Positions 1-22,406 of a DNA stretch of 22,406 nucleotides are shown here, piece by piece. The notes under the pieces were generated by a model. That model did no database searches and was not told the DNA's origin. It saw only the letters and a list, made by a program, of their open reading frames with translations. The stretch is from the NCBI GenBank assembly GCA_044345405.1, contig JBIJBE010000085.1:1-22406 (forward strand). The letters are read 5' to 3'. Origin of the DNA: Bdellovibrionota bacterium. Its GTDB lineage: Bacteria; Bdellovibrionota_C; UBA2361; OMII01. The first letter of the stretch is position 1. Every line of letters begins with the position of its first letter. A program made the translations under genes and the position numbers.

Positions 1-1
1 C

Positions 2-3000
2 GGTCATGGTTGCGGTGCGTGTTGGCGTCGCCGTCGCGCTCTCGGTCGCCGTCTCAGTCGGTGTTCGCGTCGGCGTAGAAGTCGCCGATTCAGTCGCTGT
101 GGCTGTTTGCGTCGCCGTCAACGTTGGCGTGCGTGTAGGTGTTGGCGTAACGGTTGGAGTCGTTGTCGGTGTTACCGTCGCCGTCGCGGTGATTGTTGCC
201 GTGCCTGTCGGTGTTGCCGTTGCGCTCTCGGTCGCCGTCTCGGTCGGTGTTCGTGTCGACGTAGACGTCGCCGATTCAGTCGCCGTAGCTGTTTGCGTCG
301 CCGTCAACGTTGGCGTGCGTGTCGGTGTTGGTGTAACGGTTGGAGTCGTTGTAGGCGTTACGGTCGCCGTCGCGGTCATTGTTGCCGTGGCCGTCGGTGT
401 CGCCGTTGCGCTCTCGGTCGCGGTCTCGGTCGGTGTACGTGTTGGCGTTGTAGTCGCTGTGGTCGTAGCGGTTGAGGTGGACGTGGCTGTGTAGGTGGCG
501 GTTCGGCTCGGCGTCGTGGTCGCGGTAGCGGATGGAGAGGCGGTCGCGGTACTCGTTGCGGTCTCCGTAGGTGTCGCCGATGGCGTTCGAGTGAAGGTCA
601 CGGTCGCGCTCGCCGTTGGAGTTGCCGTAGTTGTCGTTGTCTGAGTCGGCGTTAAAGTTGAAGTTGCGGTGGCCGTCAACGTGATCGACGGAGTCGCGGT
701 TAATGTTTGAGTCGGTGTGGTGGTCGGAGTCTCCGTCGGGCTTGCTGTCGCCGTCGGGGTCGCGGTTCCTGTCGCGGTGATAGTTACAGTAGCCGTCATC
801 GTCGGCGTTAGCGTTGCTGTCGGTGTGGTGGTTGCCGTTTGCGTTCCGGAAGGTGTCGGCGTCGGCGAGGTTGTGCTCGTAGCCGTTATCGTCGGAGTAA
901 GTGTCGCGGTGCGGGTTGGCGAACTCGTTGGCGTTGCGGTTTCAGTGGAAGTGCTTGTAGCCGTCTCCGTGGCCGTTGCCGTGTGAGTCGGAGTTGAGGT
1001 CGCGCTTTGTGTCGGCGTCGTGGTGCTTGTCATGCTCGGGGTAGTGGTCGGAGTCACGGTTGCGGTTTGAGTTGGTGTCGGGCTATTCGTTGGCGTTGTC
1101 GTGGCTGTCGCCGTGACAGTGATTGTGCTCGTCGCGGACGGTGTGAGCGTTGATGTAGGTGTTGGGCTTGTCGTGACGGTGGTCGTCGGTGTCTCTGTCG
1201 GAGTAGCGGTGGCAGTTGACGTTGGAGTGTAGGTTACGGTGTCAGTGACCGTGGCTGTTGGGGTCAACGTGCTCGTCGCGGTCATGGTAGGCGTAATGGT
1301 CGACGATGCTGTAGCCGTTGGCGTATCCGTCGCGGTTCCCGTCGGGGTCGCCGTGTTCGTCGCGGTCTCCGTTGGCGTAACGGTAACCGTCTCTGTGGCT
1401 GTTTGACTCGCCGTCATAGTAGCCGTTGCCGTCGGTGTCAGGGTAAGGGTTGGCGTAACACTTGGTGTCTCTGTCGGACTAGCGGTCGCGGTTACGGTGA
1501 CCGTCGTCGTGGCGGTCATCGTGGCTGTCGCGGAGGCCGTGATGGTCGGTGAGGTCGTTGGGGTTTCAGTTAGTGTGGACGTAGCCGTCGGAGAGGTGGT
1601 CGGTGTTTCGGTCGGCGACGCGGTCGCGCTCTCGGTTGCCGTCGCGGTCGGCGTCTCTGTGGAGGTTTGTGTCGGGGTAATGGTCGGTGTGCCCGTTGAG
1701 GTAGTCGTCGACGTCAACGTTGGAGTGCTTGTAGGCGTAGCCGTGTGCGTAGCTGTATGAGTCGGCGTTTCGGTCGGCGTAATCGTCGCGGTCGCGGTTA
1801 TTGTATCCGTCGGCGTCGTTGTTGGAGTTTCGGTCGGTGTAGTGGTTGAGGTCACCGTGACGGTTGGTGTTTCCGTCGGCGTATCAGTCGGTGTCTCTGT
1901 TGGCGTCGCAGTTCCTGTACGTGTCGCCGTCGCTGACGCGGTGATAGTTACGGTGTGAGTTGGGGTCGTCGTTGCGGTCGCTGTCGGCGTGATGGTAGCG
2001 GTTTCGGTTGCTGTGTCTGTCGGCGTACTAGTCGCGGTATCGGTCGGTGTCGAGGTCGGTGTCTCCGTCGCTGTTATGGTCGGGGTGGCCGATGGAGTCA
2101 TCGAGGCGGTCGCCGTTGGTGTCACGGTCGAGGTATCGGTCGGAGTTAGCGTCGGTGTGTGCGTCGAGGAAGCGGTTGCCGTCGCGGTCGCTGTACTCGT
2201 GAACGTTGGGGTCTCGCTCGGTGTCGCCGTAGCGGATGAAGTCGGTGTATCGGTAGGCGTGGACGTTGGCGTCATAGTCGACGTCGCCGTCGCGGTCAGT
2301 GTCGCGGTTTCAGTTGGGGTCAGGGTCGGTGTGTATGTGGCCGTGACGGTCGGGGTCGACGTGGTCGTCGGCGTCAGGGTCGGAGTTATGGTCGGCGTTA
2401 CGCTCTCCGTTGGGGTCGGTGAAGGGGTTTGCGTCGCGCTACTTGTCGCTGTGATGGTAGGCGTAACTGACGGGCTTTCAGTCGGCGTAGGTGATGATGT
2501 TTCCGTCGGTGTCACGCTCGGCGTCGTTGTTGCACTTGCGGTCGCTGTCGCGGTGAGCGTCGCTGTTGGCGTGGTCGTCGGGGTTTCCGTGGCGGTGGTC
2601 GTAGCTGTCTGAGTCGAAGTTGCTGAAGCCGTTATCGTGGCCGTAGTTGTCGGCGTGACAGATGGCGTCTCTGTAAGTGTCGTCGTAGGCGTCGCCGTCG
2701 TGGTCGCGGTGGCACTTTGGGTTGGGGTTTCGGTGGCGGTGAAGGTTGGGCTCTCGGACGGAGTGGCCGTTGGCGTCGTTGACGGGGTTCCCGTTGGAGT
2801 TTCCGTGGTGGTCGCCGTTACGGTCGGAGTCTCCGTTGGCGTAGACGTCGCGGTATCTGTCGCCGTTTCTGTTGGAGTCGTTGTTGGCGTTTCCGTAACT
2901 GTCGTGGTCGCCGTCGGGCTATGAGAAGCCGTCGGAGTCTGTGACGGTGTCGCTGTTTGTGTGGCAGTCGCCGTACTCGTCGCCGTCTCAGTTGGGGTCG

Positions 3001-6000
3001 CGGTCGCGGTGTGGGTTGGCGTTTCGCTCGGTGTAACGGTGGTGGTCTCTGTTGGTGTTGCTGTCGACGTCAGAGTCGGAGTGGCGGTTACCGTCGCAGT
3101 GAATGTTGGCGATGGGGTCGACGTGGCCGTCGTTGTAGCGGTTGTCGTAGCGGTAGCTGTCCAGGTTTGAGTTGGTGTTTCGGTTGGCGTTTGAGTAATG
3201 GTCGGCGAAGAGGTTGGGGTCGGGGTTGAGGTAGCTGTAGCGGTTGGTGTCTCCGTATAGGTTTCCGTTGGAGACGCTGTAGGAGTGCCTGTTGCCGTCT
3301 CAGTCGCGGTCGTTGTGGATGAACTTGTTGGAGTACTCGTTTCCGTTGGCGTTTCGGTAACCGTAATAGTCGCGGTGGCCGTCTCTGTGAGCGTTGGCGT
3401 GACCGTCGCGGTATCTGTAGGAGTTACGGTCGGTGATGACGACGGCGAGGCCGTAGCGGTCGATGTCTCGGTTTGAGTGGCAGTTATACTTGGCGTCACT
3501 GTCGCCGTCAGCGTTGGAGTCTCCGTCGTCGTAACTGTCGGCGTTATCGTAGACGTCTCCGTAGGCGTTAGGCTCGCGGTGTGCGTCGGCGTAAGCGTTG
3601 GGCTTACGCTCGGAGTCGGTGTCGTCGTGCTGGTTGGTGTCTCTGACGGAGTGAGTGACGGGGTAACCGTTACGCTCGCCGTGGACGTTGGGGTGTCTGT
3701 GGTTGTCTCGGTTGGCGTCACGCTCGCGGTTCCGGTTGGCGTGAAGGTCGCGGTCTCAGTCGGAGTCGCGGTAACCGTCAGGGTTGCGGTCACCGTGTGA
3801 GTCACGGTCGATGTCTCTGTCGGTGTCACCGTTGCTGTCGCGCTCGCCGTCTCGGATGGAGTCGATGTCGGCGAGGCAGTGGCGGTCACTGTTGATGTCT
3901 CTGTTGACGTGTGTGTCGGAGTTGGAGTCACCGTTGCTGTAGCCGTTACTGTGCTGGTTTCAGTCGCCGTTATCGTTGGAGTCAAGGATGGAGTCGTTGT
4001 TGCCGTCCATGTCGCGCTCGAGGTCGGCGTCACTGTTGGAGTTTCCGTCGAGGTCAAGGTCGGAGTCGCGGTCGCGGTCGTTGTGGCGGTCACCGTTTCG
4101 CTTGGCGTCGCGCTCGCCGTCATTGTCGCGGTCGCGGTAGGAGTATGGGTCACCGTCTCGGTCGGCGTCGATGTTGGCGACTCGGTCGCTGTGCCCGTTG
4201 CCGTCACCGTGACCGTCGCGGAACCGGTCGGTGTTGTGGTCGGTGTACCTGTCGCGGTCTCCGTAGCTGTCTCAGTTGGCGTTACGCTCGGGCTCGCCGT
4301 CGTCGTTACGGTCGGCGTTTCCGTTGGGGTCGTGGTCGGAGTTTGGGTCGGTGTTGTCGTCGATGTCTCGGTCGCTGTTGGGGATGCCGTCTCGGTCGCC
4401 GTGACGGTAGCCGTGCCCGTTGACGTCGCGGTCGCGGTACTGGTCGGGGTAGGTGTCACGGTCACTGTCGCGGTGTCGGTCGGCGTTACAGTTGGGGTCT
4501 CCGTGGCGGTGACAGTCGGGAGGGCTGTCGCCGTTCCAGTCGCTGTCACCGATGGAGTGGTCGTCGACGTCGCGGAAGGAGTCGCGCTTGCGGTCTCGGT
4601 CGCCGTTTGAGATGGCGTCGCGCTCGGTGTTCCCGTCGGCGTCTCGGTCGACGTGCTCGTCGATGTCGGCGTAGAGGTAACCGTTTCAGTTTCAGTCGGT
4701 GTCGCTGTCGCGGTTTCGGTCGGCGTTACAGTAGCTGTTCCAGTCGCGGTATGAGATGGGGTCGTGGTCGGCGTAGAGGTCGCGGTTCCTGTAGCGGTCG
4801 CGCTCGCGGTTTCTGTAGGTGTCGCGCTCGGCGTCACCGTGGCGGTCTCGGTAGCTGTGCCACTTGGCGTCGCAGTCTCCGTTGATGTTGGAGTCTCGGT
4901 AGGTGTTGATGTCACCGTTTCAGTTGACGTCGCCGTCGCTGTCGCTGTCACGGTCTGGGATGGTGTCAGGGTCGGTGTCTCAGTCGCGGTCGCCGTCGTT
5001 GTCGCCGTCGGCGTTTCGGTTGGTGTCTCACTAGGTGTAGCGGTCGCGGTCTGCGAAGCGGTCGGTGTCAAAGTCGCGCTGGCGGTCGCTGTAGGTGTCT
5101 CAGTAGTAGTGGCGGTGGCTGTCTGTGTTGGTGTGGTGGTTGCCGTTCCGGTACTCGTATGTGTCGGTGTGACGGAAGGCGTTTCAGTCGGAGTTACCGT
5201 CGTTGTGGCCGTCGGCGTCTCGGTTGCTGTTTCAGTTGTCGTAGCGGTGGCGCTCGGCGTTGAGCTCGGCGTCTCGGTTGGCGTTGTTGTTGTCGTCCCC
5301 GTAGCTGTCTCTGTCGGACTTGCGCTCGGGCTCGCGGTTGCCGTTACGGTCGGAGTTTCCGTCGGCTCCGCCGTTGCTGTGGCGGTTGACGTTACCGTGG
5401 CGGTAGCGGTCGCTGTCGAGGAAGCCGTTACGGTCGCGGTCGCGGTGGCCGTACCAGTTGCGGTCTCGGTGGCAGTGCTGGTTGAGGTTGCGGTCGGCGT
5501 CTCTGTGGCCGTCTCAGTCGATGTCTGAGTCGGGGTCGCCGTCAACGTGACGGTCGGAGTTACCGTCGCGGTCGGGGTCGGCGTCTCCGTTGGTGTCTCT
5601 GTTGCCGTCGCGGTAGCCGTCATCGAAGCGGTTACCGTCGGTGTCGGAGTCACGGTCGAGGTCGACGTTTCGGTCGCGGTTCCAGTCGGTGTCGGGCTCG
5701 GTGTTTCAGTCGGAGTCTCGGTGTTCGTCGAAGTCGGTGAGGCCGTAGAAGTTGCCGTTGGAGTTTCGGTTGGCGTATCGGTGGCGGTGGCTGTGGCCGT
5801 TACGGTCGGTGTTGCTGTAACCGTACTAGTCGGTGTTGTGGTAACGGTAGCGGTCGCTGTAGCGGTTGCCGTCTCTGTAGGGGTCTCAGTTGGTGTGGCG
5901 CTCGGCGTCACCGTCGGCGTTTCTGTGCTTGTCTCTGTCGCGGTCGCCGTTGGCGTGCGTGTAGGCGTTTCCGTAGCGGTGGCCGTTACGGTTTCGGTCG

Positions 6001-9000
6001 GCGTCATGGTCGCGGTGTTCGACGCCGTTACGGTTGGTGATGTTGTCGGTGTGATGGTTGCCGTAACGGTCGATGTGAGCGTAGCCGTTTCCGTCGCCGT
6101 GGCGGTGGCCGTCAGCGTGGAGGTCTCGGTCGCGGTCGCCGTTGGAGTCGCTGTCAGAGTGATCGTTGGGGTCAGCGATGGAGTAGCGGTTGGGGTCGTC
6201 GTCGGCGTTATCGTTGAGGTGCTGGTCGCCGTTTGCGTAGGTGTCGCGCTGCCCGTGGTCGTCGCTGTTGCGGTCCATGTTTCGGTTGGGGTCTCGGTCG
6301 GCGTCTCGCTCGGTGTCGTTGTTGCCGTTTGAGTCGCTGTCTCAGTAGGCGTACCCGTTGTAGTTGTGGTTGGAGTCTGGGTAGCGGTTGAGGTGGCGGT
6401 CTCGGTCGTGGTCGGCGTAGAGGTCGGTGTTCCCGTCACCGTAGGTGTTGCGGAAGGTGTCCCTGTCGCTGTTCGGGTTGGAGAGGCGGTCGGTGGGATC
6501 GTAGCGGTTTCAGTCGCGGTCACTGTAGGCGTATTTGTCGCCGTCAGAGATGGAGTAGAGGTTGCTGTGGAGGTCGTGGTCGCTGTTCCCGTCGCAGTCG
6601 CCGTCTCAGTCGCCGTTGCGGTCACGGTAGCCGTCGCGGTCGCCGTTATGGTCGGTGTCGCGCTTGCCGTCTCGGTCAAGGTCGGCGTCGGTGTTTGAGA
6701 TGGCGAAGCGCTCGGTGTCGCGGTTTCGGTTTGGGTCGCCGTTTCCGTCGGTGTCAACGTAGATGTCTCCGTCGGTGTCACCGTCGCCGTCTCACTCGGC
6801 GTTACGGTTGGCGTTACGGTCGGTGTCGACGTCGCCGTGCCAGTCGGTGTACCGGTCGGGGTGTCGGTCGCCGTTGCTGTTGGAGAGGCCGTAACGGTCT
6901 CAGTCGGCGTGAGCGTAGCGGTCTCGGTCGCCGTTGTGGTTGCTGTTTGGGTGTGAGTCGACGTCGCGGTGCTCGTAGCGGTCACCGTTGGAGTGGAGCT
7001 TGAGGTCGCTGTCGGAGTGCCCGTCGGAGTAATCGTGACGGTACGGGTCGCGGTCGCAGTCGGCGTCTCTGTGGGTGTGTGAGAAGGCGTCGCGGTTGTG
7101 GTGAATGTCGGCGTTTCACTTGGAGTCGAGGTTGTCGTCGTTGTGGGCGTTACAGTTGGCGTCGACGACGCCGTATGAGTTGGTGTCGTTGATGGCGTTA
7201 TCGACGCGGTGCCCGTCGGTGTTTCGGTCGCGGTCTCTGACGGAGTCGCGCTCGGCGTCGACGTGGTTGTTGCCGTAGGCGTGAACGTGGCGCTTCCGGT
7301 CGGCGTAATGGTGGCTGTGTGTGTTGGAGTATCGGTCGCGGTGGCGCTCGGAGTCGTCGTCCACGTACCGGTGGATGTTAAGGTCGGTGTGGTGGTTGGT
7401 GTGGCGGTAGCGGTACCGGTCGAGGTACTCGTCGCGGTGAGTGTGGCTGTCGGTGTCTCCGTAGGTGTTGCGGTCGGTGTGTGTGTCGATGAAGCTGTCG
7501 CGGTCTCCGTCGGCGTATGTGTAGCCGTGCCGCTCGGTGTCGACGTTGGTGTTGCACTCGCCGTTTGAGTCGCAGTTTCGGTTGGGAAAGGCGTAATAGT
7601 CTGCGTTGGCGTGTCGGTCGGGGTGATTGTCGCTGTTTCGGTCGGCGTAGTCGTTGAGGTCTCCGTTGGTGTTGACGTGCGAGTGAGAGTTGGTGTGCCT
7701 GTCGCCGTGAACGTCGCGGTAGGTGTTGGGGTGAGCGTGGCTGTACCTGTTGCCGTTTCCGTTGGGGATGGGGTCAGTGATGGTGTGACGGTGGATGTCG
7801 CGCTCGGAGTGTGCGTTCCTGTTATTGTTGGCGTGAACGTTGGCGTAGATGTCGCCGTTTCGGTTGCGGTGAGTGTCGGGGTCGCGGTGTTGGTATGAGT
7901 CGGTGTTAACGTTGGGGTCGTGGTTTGTGTCGCCGTTTCGGTCGACGTGGCGGTCGCGGTCTGAGTAACGGTGGCTGTTGGCGTAGAGGTAACCGTCACG
8001 GTTGGAGTCTCTGTCGCGGTAGAGGTCGAAGTGACGGTCGCGGTAGAGGTCGGAGTCTCGGTGCGCGTTGCCGTGAATGTAACGGTCGCGGTGGCGGTCG
8101 TTGTAGGTGTTTCCGATGGCGTCCACGTCGCGGTTTCAGTCGGTGTCACGGTCGGGCTTTGCGTCACGGTAGCCGTTGGAGTGCTCGTGGATGTTTCGGT
8201 GCTGGTCGCTGTCACCGTTGCCGTTGGTGTAGCGGTTGGTGTTTCAGTCGAGGTCGATGTCACCGTCGCGGTTCCAGTTTCCGTCGGCGTGGCCGTCAGC
8301 GTTGTCGTTGGAGAGGCCGTAGGAATCGATGTCTCCGTCGCCGTGGCGGTCTGCGTTGGAGTGCTTGTAGCTGTGCTGGTGCTTGTCGCTGTTGGTGTGG
8401 TCGTTGCGGTGTTGGTTACCGTACCGGTGGCCGTCTCGGTAGGTGATTCGGTCGGTGTCGGGGTCACGGTTTCGGTGGAGGTTACCGTCGGGCTCTCGGT
8501 TGCGGTCAAGGTTGGCGTTGGCGTATTGGTGGCCCCACCCGCAGCCGCGCTTGTGGCCGTGAATGTTGGTGTAGCGGTTTCAGTAAACGTTTCTGTCGGC
8601 GTGACTGTCGCTGTATCGGTAGCCGTCGCGGTTGGAGACTCAGTTGGAGTGTGAGTCACCGTACCCATTACCGTTTCCGTTGGCGTTACCGTCGGCGTGC
8701 TCGTTACCGTTCCCGTTACCGTTTCAGTCGGTGTCTCCGTTGGTGTCTCAGTCACCGTCGCTGTCGCCGTTACGGTAGCTGTCTCAGTTACCGTTCCGGT
8801 CATGGTTACCGTTGGCGACATCGTCGCGGTCGCCGTGGTGGTTGGAGTCTCCGTAACCGTTGGCGTCTGAGTGATTGTCGCGGTCCACGTCACCGTTGGA
8901 GTATGCGTAACGGTGCGGGTAGCGGACGCCGTTGGCGAGATCGTCGGTGTCGGACTTACGGTTGGGGTGTGAGTCACCGTAGCTGTTGAGGTGATCGTTG

Positions 9001-12000: not shown

Positions 12001-15000
12001 CGGTGGGGGTAACGGTCGCTGTCGCCGTAGCAGTAGGTGATTCGGTGACGGTGGCGGTCACTGTTTGAGTTGGGGATGTGGTTGGCGTCTCTGTTGTCGT
12101 GGCAGTTGAGGTCACCGTCGGCGTCTCGGTAGGCGTGCCGGTCTCGGTCGCGGTTGGAGAGGTCGTAGCTGTCTCGGTCACGGTCGCGGTCACCGTGACG
12201 GTTGGCGTCTCAGTCGGAGTTTCCGTCGTTGTCTCGGTCGGTGTGACGGTAACGGTTTGTGTCACCGTCTCCGTTGGCGTTTCAGTTGGGGTACTCGTTA
12301 TCGTGCCCGTCGCCGTTTCAGTTGCCGTCACGGTCGGTGTCTCTGTCACGGTCCCCGTTGGTGTCTCTGTTGGCGTATTCGTTGACGTTGCTGTCGGAGT
12401 TTCCGTCGGTGTCTCTGTAGGTGTATCCGTTACGGTCATGGTCGGCGTTACCGTTGCGGTCTCAGTCGCTGTCGCCGTCGTGGTTACTGTCGGCGACGCT
12501 GTCAGTGTCAACGTCGGCGTCTCTGTTGGCGTTACGGTCGGTGTATGGGTCACCGTCGACGTAGGTGTCTCCGTTGGCGTCGTTGTCGCCGTACGAGTGT
12601 GCGTCGCCGTCGACGTGAGGGTTGGCGTCCGAGTCACGGTCGCCGTCGCAGTGGCCGTTGGAGAATTAGTTGGTGTCGAGGTAACGGTCACCGTCGCTGT
12701 CACTGTCGTTGTCGAGGTTATCGTGGCTGTAGTGGTGGCGGTGGCAGTAGGTGTAGCAGTTCGGGTAATCGTTGGAGTGTGAGTTATCGTCGCTGTCGAC
12801 GTCGTGGTCGGCGTATGCGTCACCGTCGCGCTGGCTGTCGGCGTCGGCGACGTTGTCGCGGTGTCTGTGATGGTCGCCGTTACTGTCACCGTTGGCGTTT
12901 GAGTCGGGGTACCGGTAGGTGTAGTAGTTGGCGAACTCGTCGCGGTCTCAGTGACGGTCGCCGTCGGCGTCTCGGTCGGAGTGCTGGTCGCTGTTCCGGT
13001 TACGGTATCGGTCGGCGTTACGGTTGGGGTCTCGGTAACGGTCGCTGTGGCGGTCTCAGTTGGAGTGCTTGTTGTCGTCCCGGTCGCGGTTTCCGTAGGG
13101 GTCACAGTCGTGGTTTCCGTGACGGTCGCAGTCGGTGTCTCCGTCGGTGTGCTGGTGGTTGTTGCTGTCGCGGTGTCGGTCGGCGTGACGGTCGACGTCT
13201 CGGTAACCGTAGCTGTCGCGGTTTCGGTTGGTGTACTTGTTGTGGTCTCCGTTGGAGTCAAAGTTGGCGTTGAGGTCACGGTCTGAGTGACAGTAGCCGT
13301 GGCGGTAACGGTGCCGGTGTAGGTCGACGTCGCTGTAGCAGTTACTGTCGGCGAGACCGTAGGCGTCAGAGTGACCGTTTCGGTCGGAGTTACGGTCGGA
13401 CTTATAGTGGCCGTTGATGAAGCGGTTTCAGTTGGGGTCGATGTTATCGTACGAGTTACCGTCGCGGTTGGTGTTAGGGTCGGAGTTTCGGTAGCTGTGG
13501 CGCTCGGCGTTACCGTCGGTGAGGTCGTTGGTGTAAACGTCATGGTCGACGTCGACGTGACCGTCGGTGTTGCCGTAATCGTTGGGGTGACGGTCGCGGT
13601 TCCCGTCGCCGTCTCAGTTGGTGTCGAGGTAGGTGTGTGAGTAATTGTCGCGGTCTCCGTTGACGTCGCAGTCGGTGTTACCGTTTCAGTCTCGGTTGGC
13701 GTTGGCGACACAGTAGCCGTCTCTGTGATGGTCGCGGTCGCGGTTATAGTCGGCGTTTCCGTGGCGGTTGCAGTCACGGTGGCTGTTGGCGAGGATGTCG
13801 CCGTTTCAGTTGCGGTGGATGTTTCAGTCTGTGTTGGTGTACTTGTTATCGTGGCGGTCGCGGTGTCGGTTGGTGTTACGGTTGCTGTCTCTGTGACCGT
13901 CGCGGTAACCGTCTCTGTCGGAGTAGCTGTTTCCGTTCCGGTCGCGGTTATAGTTGGAGAGGCTGTAGGTGTATCAGTTACCGTCTCGGTTGGCGTAGCG
14001 GTCGCGGTGTGAGTGATCGTCGCGGTGCTTGTCACCGTCGGGGTTTCGGTCGGTGTCTCCGTTACTGTCGCGCTCGGCGTCAGGGTTGGCGTTGTAGTGG
14101 CGGTGCCTGTGGCTGTTACCGTTGGTGAGCTTGTCGCAGTCGGAGTCGAGGTCGCTGTTGATGTTTCCGTCGGCGTCGTCGTGACCGTGCTCGTTGCCGT
14201 CGAGGTTGGTGTGGTCGTGGCGGTTGCGGTAACGGTCGACGTCGGCGTCATGGTAGGCGTTCGGGTTGGCGTGCCCGTTGCGGTTAACGTCGGCGACATC
14301 GTTGGAGTGACGGTTACCGTTGCCGTTGCTGTCTCCGTTGGTGTGTTTGTCACCGTGCCTGTCGGTGTCTGAGTCGGCGTAACGGTAGGAGTAGTCGTGA
14401 CCGTCGCGGTCGCTGTCGGTGTCGGTGTCGAGGTCACGGTTGGGCTCTGGGTCGCCGTGCCGGTCGCGGTCGTTGTTGGAGAGGTCGTTGGAGTTTCGGT
14501 TGCCGTCGCTGTGACGGTTACCGTCGCCGTAACCGTTGATGTTCCCGTAGCGGTCGGTGTTGGCGAGGTGGTCGGCGTATCGGTCACCGTTTCCGTCGGC
14601 GTCACGGTTGGGGTTGTAGTGACCGTAGCGGTACTCGTCTCGGTTGGCGTTACTGTGGGCGTTTCTGTCTCTGTCGGGGTAGCCGTCAAGGTTGGGGTTT
14701 CCGTCGCTGTGCCCGTGGCGCTTGCGGTTGGGGAAACGGTCGCTGTTTCTGTTGCCGTTGCGGTTGGGGTTTCCGTTGGCGTGCTTGACTGAGTGGCCGT
14801 TGCCGTTTCGGTAGGCGTAACGGTCGGGGTTTCCGTGACCGTCGCGGTAGCTGTCGTTGTTGGCGTCTCAGTTTGCGTGCCAGTTGAGGTCGCGGTAGGT
14901 GAATTGGTCGCTGTTTCGGTCGCTGTGGCCGTCGCGGTCGTTGTTGGAGTCTCTGTCGCGGTTCCCGTAGGTGTCACCGTTGGGGACCTAGTCGGTGTGT

Positions 15001-18000
15001 GCGTCACCGTCGAGGTCTGCGTAGCTGTCGCGGTTGTGGTTGTGGTTGGTGTGCTCGTGGCGGTGCCTGTTGCGGTCGCCGTAGCGGTAACGGTCGCGGT
15101 TTCGGTGGACGTTCCGGTCGCGGTGGCCGTTGGCGACGTCGTTGGCGTGTTGGTCACCGTCGCCGTTGGGGTAATGGTCGGTGAACTTGTCGCCGTGGCG
15201 GTTCTGGTCTCGGTCGGCGTTGCCGTTGGAGTCGACGTTACCGTCGCCGTCGGCGTCACTGTTGGAGTGTCAGTCGAGGTGCCTGACGGGCTAGCCGTTG
15301 GCGACATTGTTGGTGTTGATGTCACTGTCTCGGTCGGTGTTACCGTCGGAGAACTCGTTGCCGTCGCGGTGCTCGTCTCAGTCGGTGTCACAGTTGGTGT
15401 CTCTGTCACCGTCGCGGTCGGCGTTACCGTTGGAGTCTCAGTCGACGTGCCTGTCGGGGTCACCGTTGGCGAAATCGTCGGTGTCGCCGTCTCAGTCTCT
15501 GTCGGAGTTATAGTCGGCGTGTTGGTCGCGGTCGGTGTGCTCGTCTCGGTCGGTGTGACGGTCGTGGTTTCTGTTACCGTAGCCGTAGGCGTTAACGTTG
15601 GCGTATCCGTTGCCGTGCCGGTCGCGGTTATTGTCGGTGACATCGTTGGTGTGCTCGTTACCGTCTCCGTTGGAGTCACAGTTGGCGAGCTAGTTACGGT
15701 CGCGGTACTGGTCTCAGTCGGTGTCACGGTTGGCGACTGCGTTACCGTTGCGGTCGCGGTTACTGTTGGCGTTCCAGTCGCGGTTCCCGTCGCGGTTGTT
15801 GTTGGCGACATCGTTGGTGTGGTCGTTACCGTCTGTGTCGGGGTCACGGTCGGTGAGCTTGTAGACGTGGCGGTGCTCGTTTGAGTCGGCGTGACAGTTG
15901 GGGTGCTTGTTACTGTCGCGGTCGCGGTTACGGTTGGCGTACTCGTCGGAGTTCCTGTCGCGGTAGCTGTTGAGGACATCGTTGGTGTTGCCGTTACCGT
16001 CTCAGTCGGAGTTACCGTCGGCGAGCTCGTGGCAGTACCGGTGCTCGTCTCCGTTGGAGTCACGGTCGGGGTCGCCGTCGCCGTGCCTGTTGGCGTAAGA
16101 GTCGGAGTTTCTGTCGAGGTAGCCGTCCAGGTCACCGTTGGCGAAACCGTTGGCGTGACTGTTACCGTTTCGGTTGGAGTCACTGTCGGCGAGCTCGTCA
16201 CGGTAGCCGTGGCGGTCTCCGTGGGAGTCATCGTTGGCGTCTGAGTCTCGGTCGCTGTCGAGGTTACGGTAGGCGTAGCGGTCGAGGTTCCTGTAGTAGT
16301 AATCGTTGGCGACGCTGTCGGTGTTGTTGTTACCGTCTCCGTTGGAGTCACCGTTGGAGAGCTTGTCACGGTCGCCGTACCGGTTTCAGTCGGTGTCATC
16401 GTTGGCGTCTCAGTCACCGTTGCTGTCGCCGTGCGCGTTGGCGTTTCCGTCGCCGTTCCCGTCGCGGTGGTCGTAGGTGAAATGGTTGGTGAGCTCGTGA
16501 AGGTCTGAGTCGGCGTTACCGTTGGAGAACTCGTAGCCGTTTCAGTGTTCGTCTGAGTCGGCGTAACGGTTGGCGTCATCGTCACCGTCGCCGTAGCGGT
16601 GAGCGTCGGTGTCCCAGTCGCCGTTTGTGAGGCGGTGAACGTCGGTGACATCGTTGGCGTCGTTGTCACCGTGTCCGTCGGTGTCACGGTTGGCGAAGTG
16701 GTTGTGGTGGCGGTGCTTGTTTCGGTCGGAGTAGTGGTTGCTGTCTCGGTAGGTGTACCCGTTGGCGTGCTCGTCGCGGTCTGTGTGGCTGTTCCCGTCG
16801 CGGTTACCGTTGCCGACGCGCTTGGTGTGGTTGTTACCGTTGCGGTGCTCGTTGCGGTTGGCGAGAACGTCGGCGTTCCGGTAGCGGTTTCAGTTGGCGT
16901 AACGGTCGGAGTCTGAGTCGTTGTACCGGTTGGCGTGAACGTTGGTGTCTCTGTGGCTGTTCCCGTTGAGGTCACCGTAGGCGACATGGTTGGTGTTGTC
17001 GTAACGGTTTCTGTCGGCGTCACGGTTGGTGAGTGTGTGGCCGTGGCGGTGCTCGTCTCTGTAGGTGTGATTGTTGGTGTCTGCGTCGTTGTTCCTGTTG
17101 GGGTGAACGTTGGGGTCTCCGTTGAAGTCCCCGTCGGCGTAACCGTTGGTGAGTTCGTCGCGGTATGTGTCACCGTCTCAGTCGGTGTGACGGTCGGCGA
17201 GCTCGTCGCCGTGCCGGTGTTCGTCTCGGTCGCTGTAATGGTTGGTGTCTGTGAAGGCGTTCTTGTTGGCGTTTGTGTTGGGGTCTCAGTCGATGTTCCT
17301 GTCACGGTTATGGTTGGAGACGCCGTGGTCGTAGCGGTGGCGGTGCCGGTTGCCGTTTGCGTTGGGGTGCTTGTTGTTGTGCCCGTGGGGGTGTTGGTCG
17401 GTGTAGCGGTCGGCGACTGTGTGACCGTTGCGGTCGAAGTCACCGATGCGGTTGGAGTCGCCGTTCCGGTCGCGGTGCCTGTCGGCGAGTGCGTGGCGGT
17501 CTGAGTCACGGTCTCGGTTGGCGTCGAGGTCGGGGAGTGTGTCGGTGTCTCGGACGGTGTCGACGTTGGTGAGCTCGTCGCGGTGTTGGTCACGGTCTCT
17601 GTCGGGGTTGCCGTCGCTGTTTGAGTCGTCGTTGACGTGGCGGTCTGCGTTGGCGACATCGTAGCCGTCATGGTCACCGTTGCGGTGGTCGTCACCGTTG
17701 GTGTTTGTGTGACTGTTTGTGTCGGTGTGACCGTTGCGGATGTCGTTGGCGTAACACTGGACGTCGCAGTCGCCGTCGTTGTTGGCGTGTTCGTGGATGT
17801 GGCTGTAGCTGTGTCGGTCGGTGTGACCGTTGGGCTACTAGTCACAGTACCGGTGGCGGTCAGCGTAGGCGTTGATGTGGCCGTCGGGGTCTGAGTGGCC
17901 GTCGATGTGATCGTTTGTGTCGGAGTCGAAGTCGCCGTCGCGGTTACGGAAGCGGTACTCGTCGTCGTTGCCGTCGACGTCTCGGTTGGGGTGGCGGTTG

Positions 18001-21000
18001 CCGTACTCGTGGTAGTCGCGGTCAACGTAATGGTCGGCGTTGCCGTCGCGCTGGCTGATGGCGTTGTTGTGGGTGTCGCGGTGACAGTTTGCGTGATAGT
18101 CGGAGTCGCCGTCGCTGTCGCGGTGAAGCTCGCGGTCGCGGTGTGAGTCGCTGTGGCGGTGGCCGTGGTTGTGCCCGTCGGTGTGATAGTTGGTGTTGTA
18201 GTCGCCGTAGCGGTCGAGGTTCCTGTGGATGTCTCGGTAGGTGTTAAGGTTGGAGTGCTGGTCGCGGTCGCCGTGTAGGTCGCGGTGGGTGTAGGGGTCA
18301 CCGTGGCGGTGCCCGTAGCAGTGCCGGTCGGCGTTTCCGTTGGTGTCAACGTTGAGGTCCGGGTTGGTGTGACCGTTGGAGTGCTAGTCGCCGTGCCGGT
18401 CGCCGTTCGTGTTGGAGTAACGGTCGGCGTAATGGTGACTGTACCTGTCGTGGTTGCGGTGGCGGTGTGGGTTGGACTACTCGTCGCGGTCTGCGTCTGT
18501 GTCGCGGTCGGTGTCAGGGTCGTGGTCGCGGTCGGAGTGATCGTCGCGGTGCTCGTCGCAGTACTCGTTGAGGTGGCACTCGCCGTTGCTGTCGGTGTAT
18601 TCGACGAGGTTGCTGTTGGCGACACTGTTGGGGTTGTCGTTGTCGTTCCGGTCGCGGTCGAGGTCGCTGTAGCGGTCGGAGTTAGGGTGACTGTCGCTGT
18701 TGCGGTGACGGTCGGCGTTTGGGTCGCCGTCCCGGTCGCCGTCGCGGTGGCGGTGACTGTTGGTGTCCTAGTGGCTGAAGCTGTGGATGTCGGCGTCGAC
18801 GTTGGGGTCTGTGTCGGGGTGGTCGTCGGTGTCGCAGTTACTGTAGCCGTGGCAGTTTGAGTCGCTGTCGGTGTCGTAGTCCCCGTTGTGGTTGGAGTGG
18901 CTGTCGTTGTTTGTGTCGCTGTCGTTGTTGGTGTGCTGGTTGTTGTGCTTGTTGGGGTAACCGTGGCGGTAGACGTAGCGGTTCGCGTCGGTGTTTGAGT
19001 CGCGGTGGTCGTTGGGGTGTTAGTTGTCGTGCCCGTCGGCGTTATGGTCGGTGTCTCGGTGACCGTGCTCGTGGCGGTCTGCGTCGGAGTCTCCGTGGGG
19101 GTTGCTGTCGTCGTTCGAGTCGGCGTAGTGGTTGGCGTGCTTGTCGGCGTCCGCGTTGATGTCATCGTCGGTGAGGTTGTCGCCGTCGCTGTTATTGTTG
19201 GAGTTGGCGTCGTAGTCGGTGTAGTTGTCGAGGTTCCCGTCGGAGTAGTGGTTGCGGTAGTGGTAGGTGTTTGGGTTGATGTTCCCGTTGGAGTCACCGT
19301 CGGCGTTACCGTCGCGGTCGATGTTGCCGTAGCCGTTGCCGTGATGGTCGCGGTGTGAGTTGGCAGTTCAGTTGGTGTCGTGCTTGGGGTGCTTGTCGAA
19401 GTGCCGGTGGCTGTCTGGGTAGGTGTGTTCGTCGGGGTCTTCGTCGCGGTCCCGGTTGGAGTATTCGTCGCCGTCTGAGTCGGAGTGTAAGTCGGAAGAG
19501 GGGTCGGTGTATCGGTGGGTGTGCTTGATGACGTCGCGGTCATCGTGACCGTGGCGGTATGTGTGACGGTCTCAGTAGGCGTGCTCGTTGGTGTGGTCGT
19601 CGGTGTCTCGGTAGCTGTGGCCGTCTGAGTAACGGTAGCGGTAGCGGTGCTAGTACCGGTCGAGGTCGGTGTTTGCGTAACCGTCGCTGTTAACGTTTGG
19701 GTCGCGGTAGGCGTAACGGTCGGCGTTTCGGTAGCAGTGCTGGTTGCGGTGGCTGTGGCGCTCGTCGTGGGTGTTCTTGTTACGGTACTCGTTGGTGTAG
19801 TTGTCGCCGTTGCCGTTGCTGTTCTCGTTGGGGTCTGCGTTGGCGTTACCGTAGCAGTACTCGTGACGGTGCCTGTCGGGGTTGTTGTCGGCGTTTGAGT
19901 TGGAGTTCTCGTTGCCGTTTGGGTTGGGGTTACCGTTGGCGTGCTTGTGGTGGTGCTGGTTGGAGTCACGGTGGCGGTGTTGGTGGCGGTTCGGGTTGGC
20001 GTTGTGGTCGGGGTTGTTGTCGCGGTCGCCGTGTTGGTCGCGGTTGGCGAGGTCGTTGGTGTGTGTGTCGCCGTCCCCGTTGGAGTTGTCGTCGGGGTGG
20101 TGGTCGGAGTGTGGGTTATCGTGCTCGTAGGCGTCTGGGTAGGAGTCTGCGTCGCCGTGCCGGTCGGCGTGGTGGTTGGGCTGACGGTTGGAGTCTCGGT
20201 TTGAGTACTGGTCGGCGTAACGGTTGGCGTCTCAGTCACCGTAGCGGTTGGTGTCTCTGTCGGGGTGACCGTCGGCGTCTTGGTGGTGGTTGCGGTCGGT
20301 GTAACCGTCGGCGTGGAGGTTGCCGTCTCTGTCGGTGTCTCTGTGGGAGTGCGCGTTGGAGTGCTAGTTGTGGTCGCTGTTGGTGTAACCGTTGGCGTGG
20401 ACGTTGTCGTTGCGGTTGGCGTCTCGGTAGGTGTCTGTGTCGGCGTACTCGTCGTGGTCGCTGTCGGGGTTACAGTCGGGGTGTGAGTAACCGTACTCGT
20501 TGGCGTGACCGTGGGTGTCACTGTGGCGGTCGCGGTTGGGGTTTGGGTTGGGGTAGTCGTTGGCGTTCGAGTAGCGGTCGCTGTCGGGGTAACGGTAGGT
20601 GTCGTCGTCGCGGTGTTCGTGACGGTCGCCGTCGGAGTAGTGGTTGGGGTTACGGTCGGCGTGCGGGTGGGTGTCGTCGTCGGGGTGCTAGTCGTCGTCG
20701 GCGTCGTGGTCGGGGTGCTGGTTGTCGTGCTGGTCGGCGTCTGCGTCGAGGTGGCCGTTGGAGTATTCGTGCTGGTTACCGTTGGTGTCGCTGTGGCCGT
20801 AGGGGTCTGCGTCGGAGTGCTCGTAGGAGTCGTTGTTGCCGTTGCTGTCGTAGTAGGCGTGGTGGTCGGCGTTGTGGTCGGCGTATTTGTTGGAGTCGTC
20901 GTCGGCGTAACGGTCGGTGTATGAGTTACCGTCGCCGTCATGGTCGGCGTATTCGTAACCGTTGGTGTTGTCGTTGGAGTAGTCGTGCTGGTGGAGGTGG

Positions 21001-22405
21001 GCGTGTTAGTTGCCGTTTCAGTAACGGTGGGGGTCACGGTCGGAGTAGTTGTGGGGGTCGCTGTCGTGGTCGCGGTCGGCGTGACTGTGGGGGTCAAGGT
21101 GGGGGTTGTCGTCGCGGTCGCCGTGCTCGTAGCGCTCGGTGTACTCGTTGGAGTTTGAGTGGCGGTCGCTGTCGAGGTTGGAGTATTTGTCGCTGTGGCC
21201 GTTTGAGTAACCGTTGGGGTGTTTGTTGATGTCGGAGTCACTGTCGGTGTCGTCGTCGGAGTGGTGGTCTGTGTAGCCGTACTCGTCCTCGTTGCGGTGG
21301 CCGTCGGTGTTTGGGTGACGGTTGGAGTTACCGTTGGTGTCGTCGTCGCGGTCGCTGTGCGTGTGGAGGTCGGTGTCATCGTCGCGGTCCGGGTAACGGT
21401 CGGCGTTGCCGTCGGGGTGGTCGTGGCGGTTAACGTGGGTGTCCGCGTGGGGGTTCTTGTTGGCGTTTGAGTGGCCGTTGGGGTCATCGTCGGGGTCGTT
21501 GTCGCGGTCGCGGTGTTCGTAACCGTTGGGGTCGTTGTAGGTGTCCGGGTCACCGTCGCGGTCCTCGTTGGAGTTGTGGTCGGCGTTGTCGTCCTTGTGT
21601 TTGTCGGCGTCCTCGTCGCCGTGCGTGTCGCGGTTGGTGTGACCGTGGGAGTGGTGGTAGCGGTCGAGGTTGTCGTTGCCGTGGGCGTCCTCGTTGCGGT
21701 TTGCGTAACGGTCGGGGTACTGGTTGGAGTGTTAGTCGCCGTCGCGGTGCTGGTAACCGTTGCCGTGTTCGTGGCCGTCTGAGTAACGGTGGGTGTGCTG
21801 GTTGGTGTGGTCGTCGCGGTTGCGGTCGCGGTTGCCGTCGCGGTTACTGTCGCTGTCTGAGTTACGGTCGGCGTGACGGTTGGCGTATTCGTCGCGGTCG
21901 ATGTGCCGGTCGCCGTCGGCGTGTTCGTGCTTGTTTGAGTGACCGTTGGGGTTACCGTTGGGGTGGTTGTCGCCGTTGCCGTACTAGTGCTGGTTGGCGT
22001 CGTCGTTGGGGTTTGCGTGACCGTAGGAGTGGTCGTTGGGGTAGTGGTGGCGGTACCGGTGGCGGTTACCGTCGGTGTTTGCGTCGTGGTTTGCGTGACC
22101 GTAGGTGTTGTAGTCGGCGTCATCGTCGCGGTCGATGTACTGGTGGCTGTCGGCGTCATCGTTTGCGTTTGAGTGACTGTTGGAGTTACCGTCGGCGTTG
22201 TTGTCGCCGTAGCCGTGTTGGTTATCGTCGGGCTCGTTGTTGGGGTGGTCGTGGCGGTGGCCGTAGCGGTTGTTGTCCCCGTTTGAGTCGCGGTTTGCGT
22301 GACCGTAGGTGTTGTAGTCGGCGTCATCGTCGCGGTCGATGTACTGGTGGCTGTCGGCGTCATCGTTTGCGTTTGAGTGACTGTTGGAGTTACCGTCGGC
22401 GTTGT
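2..22405 (-). CDS. Giant Thr-rich (T-X)n low-complexity protein, partial at both ends (>=7,468 aa); putative mucin-like secreted or surface stalk protein
   Basis: Reverse-complementing the + strand triplets that start at positions 2 mod 3 gives continuous T-X-T-X sequence. Examples: [20 protein letters not shown] near 7562-7621 and TTPTVTPT at the right end. All Val-rich + ORFs start at positions divisible by 3, so the frame never shifts. Every candidate stop I inspected (e.g. 491, 1229, 3161, 3257, 8885, 13319, 16127, 18275, 19487) decodes to Tyr or Trp. Thr, Pro and Ala codons vary freely at the wobble position while the amino-acid pattern is kept, which indicates real coding selection. The product call is inference from composition only. 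Confidence 0.93.
20..450 (-). repeat. Intragenic tandem repeat, 186-nt (62-aa) period, about 2.3 copies
   Basis: gcgctctcggtcgc occurs at 36, 222 and 408, and gattcagtcgc at 87 and 273. Differences between copies are mostly synonymous. Confidence 0.9.
8528..8554 (-). other. Single Ala/Gly hinge (T-S-A-A-A-G-G-A-T) interrupting the T-X pattern
   Basis: The + strand ggtggccccacccgcagccgcgcttgt decodes on the minus strand to TSAAAGGAT, in the context [21 protein letters not shown]. It is the only multi-residue Thr-free run I found. Confidence 0.85.
8670..11045 (-). repeat. Intragenic tandem array of about 4.2 near-identical units of 576/558 nt (192/186 aa)
   Basis: The Trp codon of the motif [25 protein letters not shown] lies at 8885, 9461, 10019 and 10595 (spacings 576, 558, 576). 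ccgtttccgttggcgttac recurs at 8671, 9247, 9805, 10381 and 10939. Confidence 0.93.
11085..12400 (-). repeat. Two degenerate 672-nt (224-aa) units related to the 192-aa units
   Basis: Homologous segments start at 11169 and 11841, and at 11485 and 12157 (both offsets 672 nt). The segment 11485-11745 resembles the part of the 576-nt unit that starts near 9139. Confidence 0.7.
15050..17700 (-). repeat. Degenerate tandem array, exact 168-nt (56-aa) period, about 16 copies
   Basis: A Ser in the Thr register (MSP/ISP-like marker) recurs at exact 168-nt steps: 15133, 15301, 15469, 15637, 15805, 15973, 16141, 16309, 16477, 16645, 16813, 16981, 17149, 17317, 17485, 17653. Example unit (15469 to 15302): [56 protein letters not shown]. 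Confidence 0.88.
20265..20500 (-). repeat. Short degenerate array, 84-nt (28-aa) period, about 3 copies
   Basis: Similar blocks encoding [11 protein letters not shown](K/S)TPT are centred on 20277, 20361 and 20445. Low complexity weakens the call. Confidence 0.5.
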
Positions 22406-22406
22406 T
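22088..22406 (-). repeat. Exact 115-nt direct repeat, 204-nt (68-aa) offset, running into the window end
   Basis: 22088-22202 is identical to 22292-22406 (ggtttgcgtgaccgtaggtgttgtagtcggc...gttaccgtcggcgttgtt). Confidence 0.92.

Follow-up and report, generated by a model that had tools for sequence, protein, structure and literature searches.

The window, i.e. the whole stretch of 22,406 nt analysed here, is one entire contig in which neither end of the gene is assembled. Its minus strand forms a single reading frame of 7,468 amino acids without any stop (Table 1). The initial annotation described a dipeptide (6-nt) register of Thr/Ser codons running over the full 22.4 kb, and we find the same when Thr/Ser frequency is computed per codon parity: Thr or Ser occupies 3,723 of the 3,734 even residues (99.7%; 3,462 Thr and 261 Ser) against just 14% of the odd ones, and a three-state Viterbi parse assigns one parity state to all 7,468 residues, with no register shift. 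On the plus strand the reverse-complemented Thr/Ser codons lie at positions 2 mod 6, and each of the 374 lines of 60 nt opens with such a codon at bases 2-4. At the odd positions (X sites) we mainly count Pro (909), Ala (859), Val (425), Glu (348), Ser (305) and Thr (216). The 11 exceptions at the even positions (T sites: L, L, M, A, A, G, I, F, P, E and L) are all in-phase substitutions, and the SAAAGGA hinge is indeed parity-neutral, as had been claimed. A search for local parity switches that cancel each other (+3/-3 pairs) yielded no evidence for such events within the window. Thr/Ser runs of length 3, 5 and 7 occur 388, 53 and 8 times, respectively, and the only even-length runs are two adjacent TS pairs, each located beside a substituted T site. 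These fit the substitution of a T site next to an X-site Thr/Ser, a situation seen in 2 of 9 substitution events in the window against ~26% expected.

Table 1. Features of the window with their positions, strand and main characteristics.
Feature	Position	Strand	Characteristics
Internal fragment of giant (X-T/S)n protein gene	2..22405	-	7,468 codons, unbroken dipeptide register, open at both ends
SAAAGGA hinge	8531..8551	-	A, A and G at three successive T sites; phase kept afterwards
Span of the 11 T-site exceptions	4520..19498	-	All in-phase substitutions
T-site exception codons, set 1	19496, 19364, 8666, 8546, 8540, 8534	-	In-phase substitution
T-site exception codons, set 2	8324, 7586, 6494, 5366, 4520	-	In-phase substitution
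Youngest tandem units	8670..11044	-	Periods of 558/576 nt alternating (sum 1134), 90-96% identical, 18-nt indels between copies
186-nt tandem repeat at contig end	1..457	-	TRF 2.5 copies, 88%
204-nt repeats at opposite contig end	22035..22406	-	93-95% identical to open end of contig C20
168-nt (2 x 84) degenerate tandem array	15099..16696	-	9.5 copies, 71% matches

The repeat periods and the 18-nt indel had been reported as multiples of 6, which holds for all periods found with TRF (186, 84, 168, 78 and 204 nt) as well as with a lag scan (558, 576, 672, 1134 and 1710 nt). In-phase lags reach an identity of 75-96%, whereas the best off-phase lag reaches just 48%. The gaps by which recent duplicates differ measure 12 nt (n=1) or 18 nt (n=4), and an 18-nt deletion variant at position 10136 is seen in an independent run. 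One point of the earlier picture needs correcting, in that the tract is no young simple repeat: only 4,152 of the 22,406 nt are duplicated at an identity of at least ~85%. Most of the tract has diverged down to the compositional floor, at ~61-66% identity to any in-phase segment.

Given that the contig consists wholly of repeat, originates from a short-read assembly (k=127) and overlaps with no other contig, it might be argued that the window is an assembly artefact, a non-coding repeat or a dead gene. Moreover, the 186-nt repeat at the contig end was probably collapsed by the assembly (summed depth of 547.6 in run X11 against ~74-251 elsewhere, with a joint that 'goes back 358'). We nonetheless consider this reading highly improbable. 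Pieces of the window recur in contigs assembled independently from four other lake-water runs, matching at 99-100% over 0.5-3.9 kb, and pieces of up to 3,865 nt show no differences at all; 7,468 codons are free of stops; polymorphisms and differences between duplicates cluster at third codon positions; and in complete paralogues the frame of the stalk runs on into the head and the tail. In addition, false joins at shared 127-mers preserve the phase and could therefore neither create nor mask a register shift.

Three complete sister ORFs are present in the same genome, on C67 (1,703 aa), C84 (1,923 aa) and C81 (C81b, 2,657 aa). All three combine a signal-peptide-like N-terminus and a stalk with a common C-terminal domain, which is conserved, Cys-rich and ~290 aa long. 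In the family the signal peptide is followed by a head that varies, then by the (X-T)n stalk and lastly by this domain. The genome holds seven copies of this domain, and the heads of the paralogues differ where assembled; no glycoside hydrolase domain was found with Pfam in the heads tested. Contig C20 encodes an N-terminal head with a signal peptide, and the 93-95% similarity of the repeats suggests that the window gene may continue into it. By elimination, the C-terminal piece of the window gene may be C81a.

Among the genomes searched the C-terminal domain is confined to this genus (19 of 24 congeners against none of 16 genomes from other families in the order). A search of 1.84 billion representatives gives 117 matches, the domain being C-terminal in each full-length match examined, and a single-protein search of genome contigs gives one locus. 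The domain has no significant match in Pfam or NCBIfam; with regard to known sorting domains (T9SS CTD, PEP-CTERM etc.), the sole Pfam match is HVO_A0261_N, well below its cut-off (19.3 against 35 bits). AF2 predicts the fold confidently (pLDDT of 91.4) as beta-sandwiches plus a helical bundle. A fold search against the PDB returns DUF3823 sandwiches as best match (TM 0.27/0.39), and a search of the protein atlas (best score 0.80) gives weak CarboxypepD_reg/Big_1-like leads only. We also considered a type V autotransporter and rejected it, as the prediction contains no beta-barrel and no autotransporter family is matched in Pfam. The conserved domain is a new module and a candidate for anchoring or export.

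Purifying selection on Thr at the even sites is strong and well supported. All four ACN codons are used (ACG 36%, ACC 30%, ACA 21%, ACT 13%) near the usage of the genome, which indicates that Thr is conserved at the protein rather than at the DNA level. Ser makes up 261 of the 272 non-Thr residues at T sites (261:11 against all other replacements together), although only about one quarter of the single-base changes of ACN yield Ser. In recent duplicates none of 89 differences falls at positions 1-2 of Thr codons and 53 fall at Thr position 3; compared with the latter, only 13 changes are found at positions 1-2 of X codons, so that the X positions are constrained as well and not free to vary. 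Similarly, the 40 best-supported polymorphisms comprise 12 synonymous and 0 non-synonymous changes at T/S sites, and 15 synonymous and 12 non-synonymous changes at X sites. The proposal that the strict alternation is under selection is therefore partly supported, and well so for the hydroxyl residue itself. None of the analyses demonstrates a one-faced ordered structure, a spacing rule of a glycosyltransferase or lateral assembly.

For the register we compared the window with related tracts. Nine sister tracts from the same genome (12,041 aa; 19,509 aa including the window) contain no register shifts, and neither do 31,542 aa of tracts from 17 congeneric genomes; homologues that freely carry odd-codon indels were thus not encountered in either set. 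Short T-rich linkers within these same proteins have 5 shifts in 774 aa against 0 in the 19,509 aa of giant tracts, which lends some support to the idea that disordered linkers tolerate single-codon indels. When a 6-kb slice of the window is searched against 35 genomes of the genus, 33 give matches, at only 61-74%. This equals the range of arbitrary in-phase segments within the genome, hence there is no orthologous alignment and gap lengths between species carry no meaning.

The suggestion that slippage on a hexamer-periodic template favours even-codon indels is strongly supported. Exact direct repeats of 8 nt at lags of at most 36 nt occur 536 times in phase and 3 times out of phase; at k=6 the numbers are 1,647 and 76, and at k>=10 none are out of phase. 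The population sample contains only 2 indels against 578 substitution sites, and all observed indels measure 12 or 18 nt. It could consequently be argued that the register is a mutational and historical by-product, in which the phase is inherited, odd-codon indels hardly arise and selection acts on the Thr residues only. Every period and every indel seen agrees with this, and a rough estimate (taking 165 flips of a local Pro phase as 6-mod-12 indels and scaling at k=8) gives ~3 odd-codon events expected in the window. Scaling at k=6 predicts ~23 such events where none is seen, and implies still more over the ~51,000 aa of tracts, again with none. Besides, register shifts do occur in the short linkers of these genes, and the saturated synonymous divergence points to a long time at risk. 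Overall we judge it a tentative account, and rather unlikely to suffice.

Alternatively, the tract might form an ordered two-faced ribbon or fibre, with a regular, beta-like (X-T)n chain whose one face carries all Thr hydroxyls or glycans and a global register that is itself selected. The chain might pair with itself or with other chains, in which case a single additional residue would invert all that follows. The contrast between giant tracts and short linkers fits this model, and the identity of ~61-66% implies ample time for odd-codon indels to have appeared. The 130 pairs and 15 triples of adjacent identical codons are possible sites for 3-nt slippage, and the phase has never shifted there. 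The constraint on X sites also fits, as does the distribution of Pro, which is found 909 times at X sites and once at T sites. Pro furthermore keeps a local 4-residue phase in 82% of neighbouring pairs (43% in shuffles), which hints at more order than in a random coil and, on geometric reasoning alone, would fit the non-hydrogen-bonded edges of a two-stranded ribbon. On the other hand, a Pro share of 24% at X sites is unfavourable to regular sheets, the Pro phase flips in 165 of 908 neighbouring pairs so that no long-range lattice is kept beyond period 2, and the microhomology described above can account for a large share of the register with no need of a structure. A 300-aa slice of the tract, predicted with AF2 as single sequence, reaches a pLDDT of 38.6, a value that bears on neither order nor disorder. 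We regard the model as unlikely. Its most specific form seems quite improbable, namely a ribbon several micrometres long in which Thr backbones are hydrogen-bonded between strands, Pro is restricted to outward X sites and an odd-codon indel would be lethal to function. If true, such a ribbon would represent a new class of bacterial surface fibre made from one polypeptide, with seven paralogues.

The reading that we prefer, with a rough probability of 0.55, is that of a secreted surface protein encoded by a gene no shorter than 22.4 kb, carrying a giant and presumably glycosylated (X-Thr/Ser)n stalk whose register results from in-phase duplication, channelled indels and selection together. By analogy with the sister genes the protein would begin with a Sec signal peptide and a variable head, continue with the stalk and end in the Cys-rich module. 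The stalk would be an extended, proline-stiffened and probably O-glycosylated chain, with a contour length for the window of ~2.3-2.6 micrometres (at 0.31-0.35 nm per residue), and could serve to keep the head far off the cell. Each hydroxyl site would then matter, since a single bare, protease-accessible gap could cut the entire tether. The tract might have grown by in-phase duplications of units of 78-1134 nt, whose lengths are without exception divisible by 6, after which hexamer-phased microhomology would steer later indels to multiples of 6 nt and some degree of selection would purge the rare odd-codon indels. A long-range ordered structure would not be required for the register. Nonetheless, the glycan-shield argument leaves the absence of benign shifts unexplained.

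If this surface-stalk reading is correct, a single polypeptide would exceed the length of its own cell: when extended, the window by itself would already measure ~2.3-2.6 micrometres, and the gene as a whole is longer still. The dipeptide-stalk design known from Gram-positive pathogens would also reach into an uncultured diderm lineage, where Thr takes the place of Ser. Over ~51,000 residues the tracts retain the hydroxyl residue and their period-2 phase, and the rest has diverged to saturation. This amounts to an unusually clean natural experiment, in which mutation bias can be tested directly against structure.

The closest known counterparts are the Gram-positive Ser-X stalks and the cellulase PT linkers, and the present protein is a member of neither. 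Like the serine-rich repeat proteins (SRRP; Fap1, GspB, SraP, PsrP), it has a hydroxy residue at every second position over thousands of residues; these also hold a variable binding head off the cell with a stalk, and dense O-glycosylation has been proposed for their repeat. In Fap1 the S(V/I/E) dipeptide repeats (consensus SX) cover ~2,000 aa, and a model depicts them as an extended stalk in which Ser lies exposed to O-glycosylation (PMC2952246). In contrast to SRRP, Thr outnumbers Ser (3,462 against 261), which is the same design with another residue and differs from Ser-X; the tract is longer (at least 7,468 aa) and has Pro as its commonest X residue; and the paralogues end in the Cys-rich ~290-aa domain rather than in an LPXTG signal, the C-terminus of the window gene itself being unassembled. 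The host moreover is diderm, and its 99.4% complete genome gives no matches to the two families tested, acc_sec_asp2 (TIGR03712, Asp2) and TIGR02919 (which we take to be GtfB).

The staphylococcal ClfA/Sdr proteins (modified by SdgA/SdgB) likewise have a stalk of strict dipeptide repeats in which every other residue is a hydroxy amino acid. Nearly all Ser in their SD repeats is reported to be glycosylated, and the glycans protect against proteolysis (PMC3794999). Their X residue is Asp, whereas Asp accounts for only 34 of the 3,734 X residues here, so that the tract is not (Ser-Asp)n; furthermore, their stalks span hundreds of residues instead of thousands, and here no dedicated glycosyltransferase is seen in the neighbourhoods of the sister genes. 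Cellulase PT linkers, which are short and join two enzyme modules, share the (P-T)n unit, P-T being the commonest unit in the window (909 of 3,734). They differ in size from the 7,468 aa observed here, where Pro makes up just 24% of X residues and other residues 76%. Fish antifreeze glycoproteins are built as (Ala-Ala-Thr)n, with one glycosylated Thr per three residues, unlike the period of two residues (6 nt) seen here. PT linkers are described as extended and O-glycosylated, with glycans making them stiffer (PMC5939190). In the literature searched (main texts) we found no description of giant (X-T)n proteins, and the tract exceeds in scale any such tract found in print; a preprint on giant genes deals with other protein types (10.1101/2023.11.21.568195).

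The host is an uncultured diderm lake bacterium, its diderm nature following from an OprB porin and a TonB-dependent receptor that adjoin the C81 genes. Its genome encodes 12 PMT_2 (GT-C) genes, which are candidate periplasmic O-glycosyltransferases. As a correlate of the trait we rejected PMT_2 copy number, given that it ranges from 4 to 17 per genome across the whole order independently of the trait. The neighbourhoods of C67, C84, C81 and C20 contain mainly housekeeping genes with nothing recurrent, and no consistently adjacent glycosyltransferase or secretion gene was found among these four. Individually, the C84 gene has a GT2 gene ~1 kb upstream, C20 has an NTP-transferase gene nearby and C81 a pyruvyl transferase gene.

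The minus strand of the window, an entire contig of a 3.59-Mb genome (85 contigs, 99.4% complete, approximately 55% GC), is a single frame that is open at both ends. Its alternating pattern is real and highly non-random: the 3,734 even residues (T sites) comprise 3,462 Thr and 261 Ser (99.7%), and the odd residues (X sites) are mainly P (909), A (859), V (425), E (348), S (305), T (216), G (123) and Q (114). The initial annotation had claimed a 6-nt register over the full length, and this is confirmed by a three-state Viterbi parse (two parities and background), which assigns all 7,468 residues to one parity; local parity switches that might cancel between sampled points were looked for, and none was found. 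The 11 T-site exceptions to Thr/Ser are all in-phase substitutions, including those of the SAAAGGA hinge, where three consecutive T sites are replaced by A, A and G. Likewise, a Thr or Ser codon occupies bases 2-4 in 374/374 of the 60-nt lines, as had been described for the lines scanned. The repeat periods named at that stage are all real, and all are multiples of 6: TRF yields 186, 84, 168, 78 and 204 nt and a lag scan 558, 576, 672, 1134 and 1710 nt, with off-phase lags never exceeding 48% identity.

Tracts and other features with their location, strand and size (residue numbers are marked aa).
Feature	Contig	Position	Strand	Size	Remark
Open frame	window	2-22405	minus	7,468 aa	
SAAAGGA hinge	window	8531-8551	minus		three of 11 T-site exceptions
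Deep segment, run X11	window	1-667			
End resembling C20	window	22070-22406			
Sister tract	C81a			3,199 aa	single parity
Sister tract	C81b			1,677 aa	single parity
Sister tract	C67			1,291 aa	single parity
Sister tract	C84			1,119 aa	single parity
Sister tract	C42a			1,360 aa	single parity
Sister tract	C42b			1,852 aa	single parity
Sister tract	C83			780 aa	single parity
Sister tract	C82			389 aa	single parity
Sister tract	C20			374 aa	single parity
N-proximal linker	C20	118-292 aa			
N-proximal linker	C81b	139-261 aa			
Congeneric scaffold L028	G021:C48	1-20000			
Cys-rich secreted protein	G000:C61	78349-80625	plus	759 aa	
PMT_2 (GT-C) gene	G000:C61	81324-81779	minus		
Protein with X-T linker	C85	~119.7-122 kb	minus	~750-800 aa	
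Protein with X-T linker	C70	~28.2-30.6 kb	minus	~750-800 aa	

Together with nine sister tracts from the same genome, the window provides 19,509 aa with 0 shifts (odd-codon changes of step). A congeneric sample of 17 other species holds 35,324 aa of tract; after removal of four duplicate loci (L038, L041, L042 and L027; 3,782 aa), 31,542 aa are left with 0 shifts within any continuous tract, one locus carrying a tract of 4,143 aa. The 20-kb scaffold L028 is made up of four X-T pieces whose frames differ and which are interrupted by N runs alone; since it terminates in the same C-terminal domain as the sister genes, it is another giant gene of the family, probably of at least 6,600 aa. The strict pattern (ACN-NNN)x25 is found in 34/35 genomes of the genus and in 43/89 other genomes sampled from the phylum, with 0 occurrences of a reversed-pattern control in all genomes. 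Given that counts per genome reach at most ~180 outside the genus against 4,399 in the source genome, alternating X-T linkers are a lineage trait that is hugely expanded in the genus, and most of all in the source genome.

The initial annotation further held that the alternation is under selection. For the hydroxyl residue this is shown by several lines of evidence. By the genetic code, only about a quarter of the single-base changes of ACN lead to Ser, and the transition to Ala is expected to be common; Ser nonetheless accounts for 261/272 of the non-Thr residues at T sites in the window. Within a pair of duplicated units (1,211 nt, ungapped) there are 89 differences, of which 53 fall at position 3 of Thr codons and 0 at positions 1-2, against 23 and 13, respectively, in X codons. 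Contigs from four other lake-water runs, aligned to window 1-20000, reveal 578 substitution places. Among the 40 best-supported polymorphisms, synonymous changes number 12 at T/S sites and 15 at X sites, against 0 and 12 non-synonymous ones, respectively; the lone non-synonymous change at a T site is F to L, at an already exceptional position. As a fourth line, the alternation is retained in each sister tract examined.

The tract is not a young simple repeat. A duplicate at ~85% identity or more exists for only 4,152 of the 22,406 nt; the remaining self-alignments and the alignments to sister tracts show 61-66% identity, the minimum imposed by the common ACN-NNN composition. Thr codons (ACG 36%, ACC 30%, ACA 21%, ACT 13%) are used at near genome-wide frequencies. 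Together, these observations indicate that silent sites are saturated while the protein pattern has been retained. Among Pro codons in the tract, CCC is strongly avoided (2.8% against 24% genome-wide) and CCT is low (8.8% against 20%), CCG and CCA being predominant; this skew may be a context effect, as each X codon precedes the A of ACN.

Two explanations survive for the fact that the register never breaks, namely mutational channelling of indels and selection that acts on the phase as well. Channelling does occur: a count of exact 8-nt direct repeats with lags of no more than 36 nt gives 536 in phase against 3 out of phase, and 0 direct repeats of 10 nt are out of phase in the window. All indels seen (between duplicates, and in the other runs a deletion and a gap of 18 nt each) measure 12 or 18 nt, both multiples of 6, in agreement with the even-codon indels proposed earlier. 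PMC10652141 proposes that alternating two-residue repeats are driven by replication slippage.

Other observations suggest that selection acts on the phase too. In the same proteins, the short T-rich linkers located close to the N-terminus contain 5 shifts in 774 aa, so the source genome can both generate and tolerate a change of register. The spacing of Pro residues provides a yardstick: distances of 4, 8, 12 and 16 residues occur 340, 167, 161 and 52 times, against 42, 40, 50 and 12 times for 2, 6, 10 and 14 residues, and 82% of neighbouring Pro pairs share a 4-residue phase (43% in shuffles). Along the window this 4-residue phase flips 165 times, the 2-residue phase 0 times. The tract has a second, weaker period of four residues (tetrapeptide P-T-x-T), whose phase is kept locally. 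Adjacent identical codons form 130 pairs and 15 triples in the window. T/S runs of 3, 5 and 7 residues occur 388, 53 and 8 times, and even-length runs are limited to two TS pairs, each next to a T site that carries a substitution. Hence even the shift that would disturb the structure least, in which one X separating two Thr is lost, does not occur. In a rough estimate, we counted each of the 165 flips of the Pro phase as a 6-mod-12 indel and scaled the total by the microhomology counts; for the window this predicts ~23 odd-codon events with k=6 and ~3 with k=8. The conclusion thus hinges on a mutational parameter, and selection on the register itself, as distinct from the hydroxyl residue, is no more than plausible.

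Complete sister genes encode, in order, an N-terminus that resembles a signal peptide, a head that varies, the stalk and a common C-terminal domain of ~290 aa with conserved Cys. The head of C42b has beta-propeller repeats (Rax2/DUF5122/SBBP matches), that of C82 gives a weak Gly-rich match, and those of C20, C84 and C81b are unannotated beta-rich regions. The N-proximal linkers of C20 and C81b are a T-rich segment of another kind than the giant stalk: Ala/Thr-rich and TATATxL-like, with an additional hydrophobic residue per 8-15 residues that moves the T register. The C-terminal domain, present in 7 copies in the source genome, is a new module. It has no significant match in Pfam or NCBIfam, occurs in 19/24 congeners and 0/16 genomes of other families in the order, and finds only 117 matches among 1.84 billion representative proteins. 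Its AF2 model (pLDDT 91.4) consists of beta-sandwiches and a helical bundle, which rules out an autotransporter barrel; likeness to the PDB is weak and confined to DUF3823 sandwiches (TM 0.27/0.39). Outer-membrane proteins adjoin the C81 genes, which shows that the cell is diderm.

Three contigs of the genome end in open N-terminal pieces and three start with open C-terminal pieces. The open end of C20 consists of 204-nt repeats sharing 93-95% identity with the window end, and C20 encodes a signal peptide as well as a ~900-aa head; from these sequences, it is probably the 5' part of the window gene. Pairing by repeat flavour joins C42b with C42a and C82 with C83, leaving C81a (3,529 aa) as the C-terminal piece of the window gene by elimination only; a correct assignment would make the protein longer than 12,000 aa. 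At the opposite window end, summed contig depth in run X11 is 547.6 against roughly 74-251 elsewhere in the window, with a joint going back 358 nt. The 186-nt end repeat has probably been collapsed in the assembly, the true copy number being above that of the contig. Independent contigs from the four other runs match window pieces of 0.5-3.9 kb at 99-100% identity. Since phase would survive wrong joins at common 127-mers in this short-read assembly (127-nt contig overlaps), the local pattern is more secure than the order of units over long distances, and the register of the whole tract is no more informative than the sum of local registers.

Among stalks built on the known dipeptide-repeat design, the protein represents a new and very large variant that uses Thr, and its C-terminal module is new as well. 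Fap1 has S(V/I/E) repeats with the consensus SX over ~2,000 aa, and its model is an extended stalk whose Ser residues are accessible to glycosylation (PMC2952246); nearly all Ser in SD repeats are glycosylated, the glycans guarding against proteolysis (PMC3794999); and PT linkers favour extended conformations, to which glycans add stiffness (PMC5939190). Membership of the SRRP family was rejected: T sites are mainly Thr whereas SRRP repeats use Ser, the source genome yields no match to Asp2 or TIGR02919, and the sister genes lack LPXTG. By analogy, the tract would form an extended, Pro-stiffened, densely O-glycosylated stalk that may hold the head micrometres away from a conserved anchoring or export module; if extended, the window would span ~2.3-2.6 micrometres at 0.31-0.35 nm per residue.

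Gene counts in the source genome are 12 for PMT_2 (GT-C), 3 for Wzy_C and 1 for GT41. As a counterweight, PMT_2 genes are unusually numerous throughout the order (4-17 per genome, in genomes of 1.5-4.7 Mb), and in the sister-gene neighbourhoods no transferase consistently adjoins the tract genes. The only close pair of a tract protein and a candidate O-glycosyltransferase that we noticed is on C61, where the gene of a secreted, Cys-rich protein that has several X-T linkers is ~0.7 kb from a convergent PMT_2 gene. Two further proteins, on C85 and C70, form a separate small family with short X-T linkers. Both start with a dockerin-like motif, 'CNGD...DVN.DC', in the N-terminal part and have, besides the X-T linker, a large C-terminal region that includes the EF-hand-like segment 'DTDRNGKIDG' (motifs labelled by eye).
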